From: an uncultured Chthonomonadaceae bacterium | Lineage (GTDB): Bacteria; Armatimonadota; Chthonomonadetes; Chthonomonadales; Chthonomonadaceae | Direction of reading: 5' to 3' | NCBI GenBank assembly: GCA_963835065.1 | Contig: CAWIEK010000024.1 | Location: 88,787 to 152,786 of the forward strand | Length of the DNA: 64,000 bases | The notes under the pieces: generated by a model | The model's input: only the letters and a program-made list of their open reading frames with translations | Databases searched by the model: none | What the model was told of the DNA's origin: nothing | Translations under genes and position numbers: made by a program | In this document: positions 55,085-62,046 of the stretch, in pieces | How the letters are laid out: each line of letters opens with the position of its first letter | Position numbering within the stretch: the first letter of the stretch is position 1

Positions 55085-55771
55085 ATGGCTACCTTTTGGC
55101 ATAAAGTGGGGCATCGGGGCACACCCCGCGAGTTCCCGGCGAACACGATGCGCAGTTTTCAGCGGGCAGTGGAACACGGCTGCACGATGCTGGAATGTGA
55201 CGTGCGGCAGGCGGCAAACGGCGTTTTAGTGTTGGCGCACGATCCGAGCGTGACGGACACGGACGGCAAAACGTATGTCGTGGCGGAAACAGCAAGCGAC
55301 ACGCTGATGCAGCTTGATTTAGGAGCCGGAGAGGGTGTTCCAACGCTGGCGGAATTGACCCATTGGGCGCGGGGGCGGTGCGCAATCATGGCGGACATGA
55401 AATGCGAAGGCAACGGCGTGGAAGAGGGAGTAGTGGCGGCATTGCGCCCCCTGGACATAAGCGCGAAAGTGGTTCCGGGCGCGGGCAGCGCCAGCCGCGT
55501 CCAATTTCGCGCCATTGATCCCACCCTGCCGCTTTCCCTGACGCTCAGTGACAGCGACGCGCAAGTGGTAGACAAAGACAATTGGGAAGGCTTGCTTGCC
55601 AGCCTCGACACGCCCGCCGTCACCTGGCATCATACGCTGCTCAACGCCGAGCGCATCTCCCAACTGCACGAGCGCAACATCACCGTCTACGCCTGGACGG
55701 TAGACGATCTCCCAACTATGCGCCGCCTGCTGTCAGAGGGAGTAGACGGCATCATCAGCAATCGCGCCTGA
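55085..55771 (+). CDS. Glycerophosphodiester phosphodiesterase
   Basis: GHRG, NTMRSF, ECDV, HD, PTL.E, WTVDD, GVDGIISN; GAGGAG RBS. Confidence 0.92.
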   Translation: MATFWHKVGHRGTPREFPANTMRSFQRAVEHGCTMLECDVRQAANGVLVLAHDPSVTDTDGKTYVVAETASDTLMQLDLGAGEGVPTLAELTHWARGRCAIMADMKCEGNGVEEGVVAALRPLDISAKVVPGAGSASRVQFRAIDPTLPLSLTLSDSDAQVVDKDNWEGLLASLDTPAVTWHHTLLNAERISQLHERNITVYAWTVDDLPTMRRLLSEGVDGIISNRA

Positions 55772-55780
55772 CTCTGTTTC

Positions 55781-56245
55781 AGGCATTAGGCATTAGGCAT
55801 TAGCAAGGAGTTTGGCGCGCAGGCTGTTTAACATCCGCGCTATCTCTTCGTATAAGTGAAATGGTTGTGCTGCGCATCCTGTGCGACTCAGGATAATTGA
55901 CCGTGCAGCGTGACAAACCGACAGAAATGTTTCCGTTTCAATCGAGAGAACCTACGCGCAATGGCAAGAATACGCGCAAATCATTCGCGCTTCCTCGTGC
56001 GCTGCCAACATTCCGCAATGTTGGCAGCGAGCGGGGAAGCGCGCAATGATTACGCGCGTAATCTTGCGATTCAGAGCGTAGTTCTCTCGTGGAATTCGGA
56101 AACATGTTCCGTCAGTTTGCTACGCCTGAACGGTACATGAGTCCATCAGCCTTCTGCCAGCACAACCTTTCATTTATAAACGGATAGCGCGCATCCTCAA
56201 TGTCTGCCTTTCCTCCTAATGCCTAATGCCTAATGCCTAATGCCT
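55781..56245. repeat. ~460-bp quasi-palindrome bounded by (GGCATTA)3 ... (TAATGCC)4
   Basis: Centre CGCTGCCAACATT-ccgc-AATGTTGGCAGCG (56000-56029); gapped self-complementarity continues outward to both repeat arms. Confidence 0.85.
55793..56205 (-). pseudogene. Four-helix-bundle (23S rRNA IVP / TIGR02436-like) gene disrupted by many indels
   Basis: Collinear motifs in shifting frames: WQKA-MD, KLTE-MFP, AANIAE, FARILAIAR-GSL-IETETFL, YEEIARMLNSLRAKLLANA*; AGGAGG at 56211-56216. Confidence 0.75.
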
Positions 56246-57263
56246 ACTCTTCCTCGGCGCGGGGGTGGGCTTTGGCGTACACTTCCATCATGCGCTCGGT
56301 CGTGACGTGGGTGTAGACTTGCGTGGTGATGAGATGGGCATGGCCGAGCAGTTCCTGCACGGCGCGAATGTCCGCGCCGTGATTGAGCAGATGCGTGGCA
56401 AACGAGTGGCGCATGGTGTGCGGCGTGGTTTTCAGGCGTTCGGAAGCAATGCGGAAATACTTGTCGAAGGTGCGCCGGATGCCCCGGTCGGACAGGCGGC
56501 GGCCAAACTTATTAAGGAACACGGCGGGGTCAGGCTTGCCTTCGTTGTGGGCGGCAAGTATGGGGCGTCCATTGCGCAGATAGTCGCGCATGGTTCGCAC
56601 GGCCATCCCGCCCATCAGGGCGACGCGCTCCTTATCGCCCTTGCCGTGCCGAATACGAATCTCGGCCTCATCCAAATCCATATCCTGCACGTCCAATTCG
56701 TGCGCTTCGCCTGCCCGTATTCCCGACGCATACAGCAATTCCATCAGGGCGCGGTCCCGCAGGCCATCGGGCGAATCATCGGGGGATTCCAGCAGGGTTT
56801 CGATTTCCGGTTCCCGCAAAAACTTGACGAGACGCTCTTCCTGCTTGATTGTAACAACGCCAATCGTAGGGTCGTTCTGCATATACCCCTGACGCTGCGC
56901 CCACCGGGAAAACGCGCGCAGGGACGCCAGTTTACGCGCCAGCGAGGTCCGCTTGTAATCGCCCTGCTGCAGCTCGGTCATAAAGGCGCGGACATGAACG
57001 CGCTCCACCCGGTGCAACGCCCCCGGCCCCAGTTCGCCATTGGTCTCCACATAGCCCAAAAACTGCGCAATATCGGCCCGGTACGCCTTAACGGTGTGCG
57101 CGGAAGCGTTCTTGGCAAGTTTGAGGAACTGCAAAAAGCCATCCAGAACATCATTGAGGGCGGCGCTCAAAGCGGGTTCCGTCAGGGGTTTGTCCGCCCC
57201 GCCCGTTTTCAGTTCCGGTTCCAGGTCAAGATCAAGTTCCAGCGTATTCGGCGCGTCAGCCAT
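56244..57263 (-). CDS. xerC: Tyrosine recombinase XerC/XerD
   Basis: SAHTVKAY, RDRALMELLYASGIR, GKGDKER, PHTMRHSFATHLL, VQELLGH, TTQVYTH. Confidence 0.88.
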   Translation of the reverse strand: MADAPNTLELDLDLEPELKTGGADKPLTEPALSAALNDVLDGFLQFLKLAKNASAHTVKAYRADIAQFLGYVETNGELGPGALHRVERVHVRAFMTELQQGDYKRTSLARKLASLRAFSRWAQRQGYMQNDPTIGVVTIKQEERLVKFLREPEIETLLESPDDSPDGLRDRALMELLYASGIRAGEAHELDVQDMDLDEAEIRIRHGKGDKERVALMGGMAVRTMRDYLRNGRPILAAHNEGKPDPAVFLNKFGRRLSDRGIRRTFDKYFRIASERLKTTPHTMRHSFATHLLNHGADIRAVQELLGHAHLITTQVYTHVTTERMMEVYAKAHPRAEEE

Positions 57264-57381
57264 GCGCTTCTCCCAGGGGTTAGGGTTTTAGGGTATTCAG
57301 GATATTCAGGAGAAGGAAAGGAGAAGCCGCTCCTTCTGTATTTTCTCCTCTTCTCCTCTTCTCCTTTTCTCCTTTTCTTCC

Positions 57382-57813
57382 TCACCCCTTCTGACGCCGC
57401 TGCAATTCCGCTTCTTCGGCGGCGGCAAGGTCGGCTTCTGTAGCGCGGGCAGGCACGTCGTTTTGCGCAGGTTTTGCGCCGACGGCCAGGATGTCCCGCG
57501 CCGAAACAAGGACGGTGTAGCGCAGGCGGAAGTCGCGTTCCTGCGGGGTCAGCCGATTGCGGCCTTCCTCGGAAAGCCCGTCCAGCCAGCGCGTTTTCAT
57601 AGTCTCCTGCACATCGCCATGCCGGACGGCAACCGCTTCCGGCAGGCTGTCCAATTCGATTTCAACCGCCGCTTCCTCGCTGGCGTACATCTTCTGCACC
57701 ACGCCGGTCAGTCCGCGAAAATGGTTGAAAAACAGGCTGGATTTCACGTCTTCCGCCGTCGCGTTGCGGTCAGCGATTTGTACGCGGTCGCCTTCCTTAA
57801 TCGTTGTCGCCAT
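57382..57813 (-). CDS. Hypothetical protein (N-terminal SH3/KOW-like)
   Basis: IKEGDRVQI...GLTGVVQK; GAGGAGG RBS; co-oriented with xerC. Confidence 0.7.
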   Translation of the reverse strand: MATTIKEGDRVQIADRNATAEDVKSSLFFNHFRGLTGVVQKMYASEEAAVEIELDSLPEAVAVRHGDVQETMKTRWLDGLSEEGRNRLTPQERDFRLRYTVLVSARDILAVGAKPAQNDVPARATEADLAAAEEAELQRRQKG

Positions 57814-58034: not shown

Positions 58035-58752
58035 CTAATACGTCCAGGTTTCGTGGCGCGCGGGCAGGCTGTTGAGAAGGGCGCGAGAAGACTGCCAGCG
58101 GGGCAGGTAATGATCCAGGAGGGCGATGAAACGCGCATTGTGCGTCGGTTCCAGCAGGTGAAGCAGTTCGTGGACGACGATGTATTCCAGACATTCCGGC
58201 GGCTTTTTTGCCAACTCCGTATTCAGGCGAATGTGGCGGGTACGGGGGCTGCAGCTTCCCCATTGCGTTTTCATCCGGCGCACAACAACCGCTTCCACCT
58301 TCACGCCTAAAATCGGTTCCCATTTTGCGATCAGCAGCGCGGCGGCGGGAGCAAGCGCGGACCGGTACCACGCTTCCAAAATCTCCTGCCGCTTTTCAGC
58401 AGTGGAAGCGGGGCGAACCTGAAGCTGTAATTCATGGTGCAGCAGCGTGATTTTGGGCGGCGCATCCTGTTCCACAACATGGAGCAGGTAGCGCTTGCCC
58501 CACAGGTAGTGGCTCTCCCGCTCGATATATTCGCGGGGCGATTTCGCGTTCCTGTTTGCGCAGCTTCTGCTGCTGTTGCTTGATCCAGCCCAGTTTGGAC
58601 AGCGCAAACACGCGGATGGTGTCGTTATCCATGCGCAGGGGCGCGGAAATCCGCACTTTTCCAACCGGCGGATAAACGCTGAGATGGATGTTCTTGATGT
58701 CTTTCTTGACGACATCCACAACGATCTCGCCAAGCGTGATCTGCGTGACCAT
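58035..58752 (-). CDS. M48/YgjP-like zinc metallohydrolase (type I R-M associated), frameshift near 58540
   Basis: KDIKNIHLSVYPP, MKTQWGSC, EYIVVHELLH..H...F. Confidence 0.85.
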
Positions 58753-61700
58753 CAGTATTCCCTCTGCTGTACCAAAATGGGAAATACCCGCTCCACCATA
58801 TCTTTATCTTGCAGCGCGTCGTACAGGGCGCGTTTGATAACGTTTTCCCGCGAATCAATGCCGCGCCAATCGTCCGGCCTGACCTGCTTCACAAGCGCGT
58901 CAATCTGAATCGCCCGTTCCAGCGCGGCGTTTTGCGCGGCCTCGCCATAAGGAACCGGGGCTTCGGCCACGCGATCCGCGCTTGGAGCAGAAGGCTGCGG
59001 CCTTACTTGCTGCATCAGATGATTGTACAGGGCGCGTTTGCCGGGCGTGTCCAACTGCGGCGGCGTGTCGTCCCCCGTTCCCATTTCCACGCGCTTCGCC
59101 GCTTCCGCCGCCCGTTTCAGGTACGCCTCGTAGGTGATGGCTTTGGCCTTGCGATCCGCGATAATCTCTGCCAGCACTGCGGACATCTGCTCATAAAACG
59201 CCGGGTCATTGAGATGTTCCCGGATGATTTTGCTGCGGATATTGTTCTCGATGATTTCGGCAACCGCCGCTTGATTGTCCCTGATTCCCTCAGGCATCGT
59301 TTCAACGGCCTTTTCAATCCCCAATTTCACAATCAGTTCCAGCAGGGAAAGGCTGTCAAAGGGTGAAATCTTGCGCGGCTCGTCGGCTTCGATGTATTTG
59401 TCAATCAGATACCGCATATCCGCTTCATAGGCTTTCAGGTCGAGTTTTTCTTCGCTGGCGTTGCGGATGGTTTCGCGCAGATGCAAAGCCTTATCAATTT
59501 GCTTTTTGATGCGCTCTTTATCCGCGCCGTGTAGCCTGCCGCATCCAGTTCGTCAGCGATGTTGGCATACGCGCGCACAAGGGCAACCGTTGCGCGATAC
59601 AGGGCCACGCGCTGCGGCTCATGCGCCTTCAAGTCTTCCGGCAGTTCCGTGTTGCCGCAGAAATAGTGTGATACATCCAAATCTCTCTTTGGGTGGTTGC
59701 CACCGGCTCGCACAACAATACGAGGGTTTCCAGAGCAATGTCCAGCCGTTCGCGGCCTTTGCTCAAGCGGCTTTGCAGCAGAATGTTGGCATCGGTTCCG
59801 TCCGGGGCGCTGTCGTCCAGTTCCGACGTATACACCTCAATCGCGTTCTCGACCTTCTTGAACAGGTCTTTGTAGTCCACGATGTAGCCGAACTCTTTGT
59901 CCTCGCTGTCCAGCCGGTTGGTGCGGCAGATGGCCTGAAACAGCCCATGATCCTGCATGGTCTTGTCAATGTACAAATAGGTACACGAGGGCGCGTCAAA
60001 TCCCGTCAGCAGCTTGTCTACCACAATCAGCAGCTTCATGTTGGCAGGCTCTTTTTTGAACTTCTGCTTGGCGTTTTCCTCATACGTTTCGGTTTTCGTC
60101 ATGCCGGGATTGGCCGCTATGTTTTTCAGCAGTTCGGCATACGTGTTGTAGATAAACTCCCGATCTGTTTCCGTGTTCGCGCCCGTGTCTTCCGTCGTAA
60201 TGTCTTTCGTTTGCGGATTGTAGGAGGTAATCACGGCGCACTTGCCTTTGAAGGGCGTCTTTTGAAACAGTTCGTAGTATTTGCAGGCGTCGTAAATACT
60301 GGATGTTACCAGCAGCGCGGTTCCCCGATGATTGCTGAAGCGCGGCTTGACGTTGAAGTCACGTGATGTCTGCACAACCCGATCCATGCGGGCTCGGGAA
60401 CTTTGCACTTTTGCATGGTTCCCCACTTCTTTTTCAGTTCCTCCTTTTGCCAGTTGTTCAAGCCTCCGGAAATGGCGTCGAACCAGGCATCTATCTTTTC
60501 CGGTGAGTCGAGCATCTGGTCAATATCCCGCGCCTCGTAAATCAGGTCAAGAACAACCTTGTCCTCTGACGGCTTCGCCATACTTGTAGGTGTGGATATA
60601 CCCGCCGAAGATTTCCAGGCTGGTCTGCTTGTCCTGTTTCAGCAGCGGTGTGCCCGTAAAGCCGATGAAAACCACGCCGGGCAATAATGCCTTCATCGTC
60701 CGGTGCAGTTTGCCGCTTTGCGTCCGGTGGCACTCGTCCACAAACACGAAAATCTCGCCCACCGCCTGGCCGGGCTGCGCTTCCAACTCCTGAATAAACT
60801 CCTCGAAGTTATCCACGCCCTTCCTGCCGAACTTGTGGAGCAGCGAACACAGCAGGCGCGGTTTGGCCTGTCCCAATTGCGCCATCAGGTCGCGCCCGCT
60901 TTGGGTACGCTTCACGGGTTCGCCCGCATCGTTGAACACGCGCTCGATTTGTTCGTCCAATTCGTCCCGGTCGGTGACAACCACCACGCGGGCATGGGGG
61001 TTGTTTTCCAGTATCCACTTCGCCAGCAGCACCATCACGATGCTTTTGCCGCTGCCCTGCGTGTGCCAGATAATGCCGCTTTTGCGCTGGTCAATATGCG
61101 ACTGCGCGGCTTTGATGCCGAAATACTGATGGACGCGGGGCAGTTTTTTCGTGCCGCCGTCAAACAGAACAAAATCGCGCATCAGTTCAAGCAATCGGTC
61201 TTTGGCGCACATCTTGAGCAGGTACTTGTCCAGTTTGTAACGGCTGTTGTCCTGCTCGTCCTCCTTCCATTGCAAAAAGTATTTCTCTTCCGTTCCCACC
61301 GTGCCATACTTCAGGCCTTCGGAATCGCTGCCCGCAAACACAAACTGCACCGTGCTGAAAAACCACTCGTGAAACTGCCCCTGCTGGTTGGAGATATTCT
61401 GCCGGATGCCGTCGCCGATGGAAACGCTGCTGCGCTTCAACTCCAGAACGCCGACCGCGATACCATTCACATACAGCACCAGGTCGGGGCGGCGCGTATG
61501 CTGGCTGCCGTGCAGCGTGACCTCTTCGGCAGCGCGAAATCGTTGGCTGCGGGCTGCTTCCAGTTGATGAAGTGAACCGTTTCATGCTTCTCGCCCGCCG
61601 CCGTCTGCACCGCAGCGCCGTACCGCAGCAAGCCATACACGGCTTTATTGTTGCCGTACAACCCCCGATTGGTGTTGTTGGCTTCCACGCGGAGCAGGAA

Positions 61701-61888
61701 AAGGGCGCGGCTATTTGCGCCGGGGTATAGCCGCTTTTGGTCAGAATGCGCCGTAAGACATGGTTCCTCGATGTTGCTGTTGCCGTCCCGGTACATCCGG
61801 TTGCCCAGATAGCGATACCCCAACTCCTGCCGAAACAGGGCAATGACGCGGTTCTGCGTTTCGCGTTCGGTTTTTCCAATGCACTCAT
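58752..61888 (-). pseudogene. hsdR: Type I restriction subunit R with roughly 8 or more frameshifts
   Basis: [61 protein letters not shown] spread over several frames. Confidence 0.88.
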
Positions 61889-62015
61889 AATACGGGATGC
61901 TTTCATTATGTACTATATGCTTGAAGCACACAGCAGACAAAAGACGGGGTAAATTGCAGGAACGCCTAAAATACCCTGGATTGTGGATTTTGTCTAGACT
62001 ATTTTTTATGCCCGC

Positions 62016-62046
62016 TTGACATACTAACGCCGGCATGTCATACTAT
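62016..62046 (+). promoter_or_regulatory. Putative promoter/operator of the TA pair
   Basis: TTGACA...TACTAT (19-bp spacing) overlapping the inverted repeat TGACAT-N12-ATGTCA. Confidence 0.35.

Follow-up and report, generated by a model that had tools for sequence, protein, structure and literature searches.

The window, by which we mean the whole 64,000-nt stretch of DNA that was analyzed, contains a small cassette at the junction of two convergent genes, outside any 23S rRNA gene (Table 1). One neighbor encodes a glycerophosphodiester phosphodiesterase (GDPD), and the other an XerC-type tyrosine recombinase. The cassette is bounded by arms of tandem heptamers, 23 nt of which are perfectly complementary between left and right. 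On the minus strand, a four-helix-bundle reading frame terminates inside the left arm (...KLLANA-stop), and the TAG stop codon of xerC forms the outer end of the right arm. The purine-rich GAGGAAAGG stretch just inside the right arm is ribosome-binding-site-like and presumably has that function. As detailed below, the assembled interior is most likely a gene blended with its own reverse complement, carrying ∼40 surplus bases.

Table 1. Features of the cassette and its neighbors, in window coordinates
Feature	Position	Strand	Remarks
Left neighbor: GDPD (PF03009)	55088..55771	plus	directed into cassette
Left heptamer arm	55781..55803	none	AGGCATT x3.3
Four-helix-bundle gene (PF05635/TIGR02436-like)	55804..56214	minus (main orientation)	same direction as xerC
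Central stem	56000-56012 / 56017-56029	none	13 bp, perfect
Purine-rich stretch just inside right arm	56207..56215	minus	GAGGAAAGG, from sequence; X3 record 17 agrees as far as 56207
Right heptamer arm	56215..56246	none	x4.6
Right neighbor: XerC-type tyrosine recombinase	56244..57263	minus	directed into cassette

Both neighbors had been taken as intact in an earlier, sequence-only reading of this DNA. This holds for xerC. For GDPD, the contig of one relative is shorter by a single base at each of 55769 and 55774, and the genuine frame therefore probably extends into the left arm and stops there. GDPD homologues continue past NRA, as does the frame proposed to run into the arm. The last GDPD codons may therefore also carry consensus noise. 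Two other features lie beyond xerC in the window. A purine/pyrimidine-skewed repeat hairpin is found at 57270-57385, between xerC and the gene upstream of it. At 58750-62040, on the minus strand and near the contig end, one gene is split across at least five frames, either as a pseudogene or through consensus noise; from its motifs we take it to be type I restriction subunit-like.

The interior is strongly self-complementary. When the 412-nt interior was aligned with its own reverse complement, 320 of 442 columns matched (score 336). Shuffled versions scored –9 ± 19 (n = 200, maximum 32), and the next-best stretch of the same length in the window scored 68. The fold energy of the interior was –163 kcal/mol, versus –79 ± 5 for 100 shuffles (z = –18.5). 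The central stem is centered at 56014, 5 nt off the midpoint between the arms. These values bear out the earlier description of ∼410 bp between the arms as self-complementary with gaps, with a perfect 13-bp stem at the center and a symmetry axis near the midpoint of the arms. The other self-matches quoted in that description were all found in the sequence.

Gene signal is present on both strands. The minus strand is similar in two frames to a natural homologue, P0001 (E = 3.6e-10 and 7e-6), and the plus strand is similar more weakly. P0001 was the single homologue among 27 candidates, found with the C-terminal piece of the interior, and is a clear PF05635/TIGR02436 member (140.7 bits, over the cut-off of 33.8). 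From P0001 and 119 relatives (120 homologues) we built a frameshift-tolerant profile. Its score was 289 on the minus strand (columns 9-119, 23 shifts), compared with 91 on the plus strand (columns 38-102, 9 shifts). As controls, the antisense strands of 30 intact cassettes gave 35 ± 4 (maximum 43), and 30 shuffles reached at most 49. Along the minus strand, the motifs WQKAMD, ANIAEG and EEIARML follow one another collinearly when the breaks are read as X; members of the family are ∼120 residues long. Hence the collinear but frame-broken four-helix-bundle motifs reported earlier on this strand were recovered. Five single-frame pieces of the window showed no match to family profiles, and a profile search of the genome for four-helix-bundle genes passed over the locus, both misses being expected from the frameshifts. 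The cassette's intact protein was absent from the protein collection, in which the top match to the C-terminal piece was 54% identical. Elsewhere in the assembly, 16 frameshifts were counted over 151,608 nt, in a comparison of 121 orthologues (from 317 ORFs in 19 stretches of the relative G001). A promoter and terminator scan of the locus yielded nothing usable, with two of three promoter-like sites being mirror copies within the blend.

Cleaner copies of the cassette exist in contigs from public runs (X), which represent relatives of the host and not the source sample; no run was found to be nearly identical to the window, and the best share 5–8% of words. The cassette is present in X2, X4 and X5, from three studies (three of the four runs compared with the interior); run X6 gave no cassette match. 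The relatives' copies are ∼10% shorter than that of the window and are non-palindromic. Pieces measure 285 nt in the relative versus 314 nt in the window for X4, 122 versus 141 for X2, and 127 versus 136 and 122 versus 141 for X5, and gap counts imply surplus window bases of about 31:2, 20:1, and 9:0 and 20:1, respectively. All 12 of the indels listed (27 others were unlisted) are surplus bases in the window. Indeed, the relatives differ from the window almost solely by absent single bases, spread evenly. Contigs of X2 and X5 lack four bases at 56007 and one at 56028, indicating that the 13-bp stem is a product of the blend. Past 56119, X2, X4 and X5 all show the family N-terminus in frame. 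In a mirror-letter test, agreement was seen for 18 of 20 extra bases and 18 of 28 substitutions, against a high background of 320/411 (78%).

The relatives also bear on orientation. In X2, the 3′ end of the gene is joined to the GDPD side, and in X3, xerC is joined to the 5′ side. Both correspond to the main orientation, and each of these two runs shows a single orientation only. Ahead of the 3′-end arm, X4 carries GGAG-TAG in place of the window's TTTC; of about 22–23 readable xerC ends, 3 finish in GGAGTAG. These four letters give a weak hint that X4 has the opposite orientation at the GDPD–xerC site, and could instead mark another locus. Cassette DNA was found in none of 67 other genomes of the class. 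A GDPD-led scan of metagenomes returned relatives of ≤68% identity only, with a four-helix-bundle match at 0 of 16 loci checked out of 80.

We simulated the consensus of mixed orientations by aligning ten noisy reads from two intact cassettes of the host genome and taking the consensus, in 40 runs that used MAFFT rather than a real polisher. With ≤30% inverted reads, the consensus was clean, with at most 6 extra bases. With 40% inverted reads, the outcome depended on the rule: a gap-averse rule gave 37–60 extra bases and 4–7 substitutions, whereas plain majority gave a nearly clean consensus and no blend. At 50%, a mosaic with 74–120 substitutions was obtained. Simulated piles thus blend only at about 40–50% inverted reads, and the pattern in the window (∼40 extra bases, one strand dominant) is the outcome simulated with 40% inversion and the gap-averse rule. 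The self-match of the window, 0.82 per base, is slightly above every simulated value (maximum 0.80). In a sequenced fim switch, a near-50:50 mixture is described as disturbing consensus polishing (PMC9980784).

We analyzed repeats and palindromes across the host genome (G000). It contains 2066 tandem heptamer arrays, 183 of which consist of the cassette-arm heptamer. Many arrays form inverted pairs around short non-coding spacers. Such pairs, together with long imperfect palindromes, are apparently gene-less relatives of the cassette arms. The number of long imperfect palindromes (≥100 aligned columns), 698, first suggested a genome-wide artefact. This idea was discarded: inspection of 18 alignments, which did not include the blended locus, and of 7 regions revealed either nested repeats or pairs of convergent paralogues. 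Two such pairs, at C22:89525-91313 and C18:10832-12291, form imperfect palindromes of 1.5–1.9 kb. The blended locus ranks first of 104 pairs of perfect inverted repeats whose low-repeat interiors span 150–1500 nt, and it is the sole one with a gene-derived self-complementary interior. Three intact PF05635 genes in the genome, with arms of 20–32 nt, are clean (self-match –0.07 to 0.07), which argues against a generic hairpin artefact. Another convergent junction (C33:57148-57633) holds a four-helix-bundle cassette in the host genome and two different gene-less hairpin elements in the relatives G001 and G002, so this junction has apparently been colonized repeatedly.

To our knowledge, the four-helix-bundle (PF05635/TIGR02436) family has no known function. 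The family is widespread: members exceeding the cut-off are found in 28 of 68 genomes from the host's class and in 65 of 121 from Brevundimonas. Of 27 such genes in the host's class, 23 lie between inverted arms (local score ≥40); the figures are 60 of 103 overall, after three short loci were dropped, and 47 of 70 in one Prevotellaceae genus. Inverted heptamer arms are therefore normal anatomy of these genes. The cassettes also come and go. The GDPD–xerC junction is empty in six relatives (G001, G002, G009, G011, G030 and L039), and a contig joint in X3 skips 55762-56247, corresponding to the empty-site version. These observations identify the cassette as having inserted next to a housekeeping xerC. 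Both this junction and a Brevundimonas site are known in filled and in empty form; flanks of the empty-site genomes are 76–86% identical, too distant for placing a target-site duplication.

Orientation varies as well. Both orientations occur at 5 of 28 sites shared between genomes, all in two other genera. In Brevundimonas, 90 loci fall into 15 sites sharing both flanks, one of which shows both orientations. This site lies between genes for a CDP-alcohol phosphatidyltransferase and an S46 peptidase, and is empty in five close genomes. G139 and G085 carry the cassette in one orientation, and G080 and G214 in the opposite one; the genes of G139 and G080 are 89% identical and mutual nearest neighbors, and the breakpoints lie within the arms. 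In the Prevotellaceae genus, where 70 of 91 listed places were examined, both orientations occur at 4 of 13 shared sites. Two of these four involve genes that are each other's closest match (71% and 85% amino-acid identity). The genes at the L381/L406/L416 site share just 65–69% identity, making independent insertion possible. Among the 12 loci measured, no perfect arm match exceeds 29 nt, so short-read assembly is unlikely to have placed cassettes the wrong way round. No flip was seen at the three shared sites (9 loci) within the host's class or within one 26-locus Brevundimonas site, and no recombinase was found among identified flank genes of the flipped sites. By flank type, flips were seen at 3 of the 9 convergent sites, at 2 of the 13 co-directional ones (one site call resting on ORFs only) and at none of the 2 divergent or 4 unresolved sites. 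The notion that only convergent sites flip, or that they flip more freely, was dropped (3/9 versus 2/13 co-directional, Fisher P = 0.61). Opposite matches across phyla that share one flank (L116/L117 versus L213; the L123 group versus L163), and L433, were not counted as flips.

We consider it probable that the palindrome is an assembly blend arising from a natural mixture of orientations, with no dedicated invertase; the palindrome as assembled is most likely not real DNA. An armed four-helix-bundle cassette has entered the junction where GDPD and xerC converge. The population that was sampled likely carried it in both orientations at ∼60:40, which the assembler likely merged into a palindrome-like consensus. 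Flipping would occur by exchange or by replication template switching between the 23-bp arms, carried out by general host functions. At this convergent junction a flip would be nearly neutral, since both neighbors end at the arms and the gene lies downstream of one of them either way. The two forms might be co-occurring lineages or the result of within-clone switching. The earlier proposal that the segment is a consensus of itself and its own inversion gains support from the clean copies in relatives, the two-strand profile signal and the simulation, which agree. It had left two sources for the inverted reads. We favor a real mixture over an artefact because cassettes flip between genomes elsewhere and armed cassettes in the same assembly are clean, although flips between species do not by themselves show mixing inside one population. 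The artefact, which we judge unlikely, would mean a single orientation in cells, with inverted or folded-back molecules, generated at the 23-bp arms during amplification, library preparation or sequencing, dominating a shallow pile. Polymerases are known to switch templates at inverted repeats, X2 and X3 show one orientation only, and the residual indels of the assembly are such as a modest-depth long-read consensus would leave. Yet, judging from the simulation, ∼40% of reads would need to be inverted. Moreover, no gene-derived blend appears in the three like cassettes or in the other 100 inverted-repeat pairs, the flanks are without mirror contamination (neither of the two extra bases, at 55769 and 55774, matches the opposite flank), and natural flips exist at sites in other genera. 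Our search of the open literature on inverted-repeat template-switch library artefacts found no paper on exactly this one.

A programmed phase switch, in which inversion of the cassette by the neighboring XerC, or by some other site-specific recombinase, would change the upstream gene that drives it, seems highly improbable. Active switches typically give a near-balanced mixture, as described for the fim switch (PMC9980784), and the stop codon of a recombinase gene lies inside the arm. But the best family of this neighbor is housekeeping XerC (TIGR02224, 314.5 bits, below the 335 cut-off), with FimB/E-type invertase families (NF007370/1) reaching only 59–64 bits versus cut-offs >220. The arms belong to a genome-wide repeat, with its 183 arrays. 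The link to xerC hinted at in the sequence-only reading also fares poorly in light of the empty junctions in six relatives and the non-recombinase identity of the known neighbors of flipped sites. XerC is probably uninvolved in the flip and a housekeeping neighbor only. Least credible of all is that the palindrome is real DNA, a pseudogene part-converted to its own reverse complement by hairpin-templated repair. Such is the sequence as assembled, and the genome does hold 698 natural long imperfect palindromes; those inspected, however, have the other origins given above. Differences from the relatives are almost all evenly spread single extra bases rather than converted tracts or deletions, and the simulation reproduces this extra-base pattern.

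With an orientation mixture as the preferred reading, the cassette is likely an inverton-like element that lacks a dedicated invertase and carries a PF05635/TIGR02436-type gene. Genes of this family usually sit in inverted heptamer arms, come and go at gene junctions, and flip there. This makes a testable case that four-helix-bundle genes are a kind of mobile cassette, with the intervening sequence of rRNA as one place of residence. In long-read genomes, a palindrome with gaps that is enclosed by short arms marks a balanced inversion and keeps a gene from being annotated. The assembled bases at 55804-56214 are unsuitable for use as real sequence. As in a MITE-like mobile element with terminal inverted repeats, the insertion site of the cassette is known both filled and empty. 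We found no paper on inversion of such cassettes in the open literature, subscription journals being outside the scope of the search.

Several known systems offer comparisons. The Coxiella burnetii IVS with S23p is 428 nt long, has heptameric repeats upstream of the start codon and is patchily distributed (PMC4990558). The cassette is like this ORF-bearing 23S rRNA IVS (PF05635, TIGR02436) in size, protein family, heptameric repeats and patchiness. It differs in lying between two protein genes rather than in rRNA, being known here from DNA alone, and in that it is likely invertible, whereas the cited part of that paper reports no inversion. Invertons, such as the fim switch and the intragenic ones found by PhaVa (PMC9980784, PMC10028968), resemble the cassette, in which inverted repeats likewise enclose a segment that probably exists both ways round. 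Unlike in those, the arms of the cassette are tandem heptamer arrays found genome-wide, a whole gene flips, no dedicated invertase is evident beside it, and no regulatory effect is claimed. Avd of DGRs is a homologous four-helix bundle (PMC10053308), and P0001 matches the Avd profile PF22296 at E = 2e-6, below the cut-offs (28.6 of 40 bits for Pfam, 31.8 of 80 for NCBIfam). In contrast to DGRs, the immediate neighbors here are GDPD and XerC, and there is no adjacent reverse transcriptase. Finally, TAACTGA heptamer repeats are intergenic and abundant in Beggiatoaceae, Cyanobacteria and Bacteroidetes (PMC4679880). They resemble the cassette arms as abundant intergenic 7-mer arrays, but are almost only direct repeats, whereas the cassette arrays form inverted pairs around a gene; the term 'four helix bundle' is absent from that paper.

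A broader hypothesis, which we regard as rather doubtful, is that armed cassettes are widespread recombinase-free invertible and mobile elements. An Avd-like protein, together with a host polymerase or reverse transcriptase, would act on the arms, bringing about insertion and in-population flipping and seeding thousands of gene-less hairpins. If the protein does act on its own arms, an unexplained family would gain a role in genome rearrangement. Among the loci surveyed, one Brevundimonas group (L311, three genomes) has the cassette antisense between phage-type portal and prohead protease genes. At L126, L129 and L139, the four-helix-bundle gene contains one internal stop codon, which suggests that the cargo gene can decay while the arms persist.
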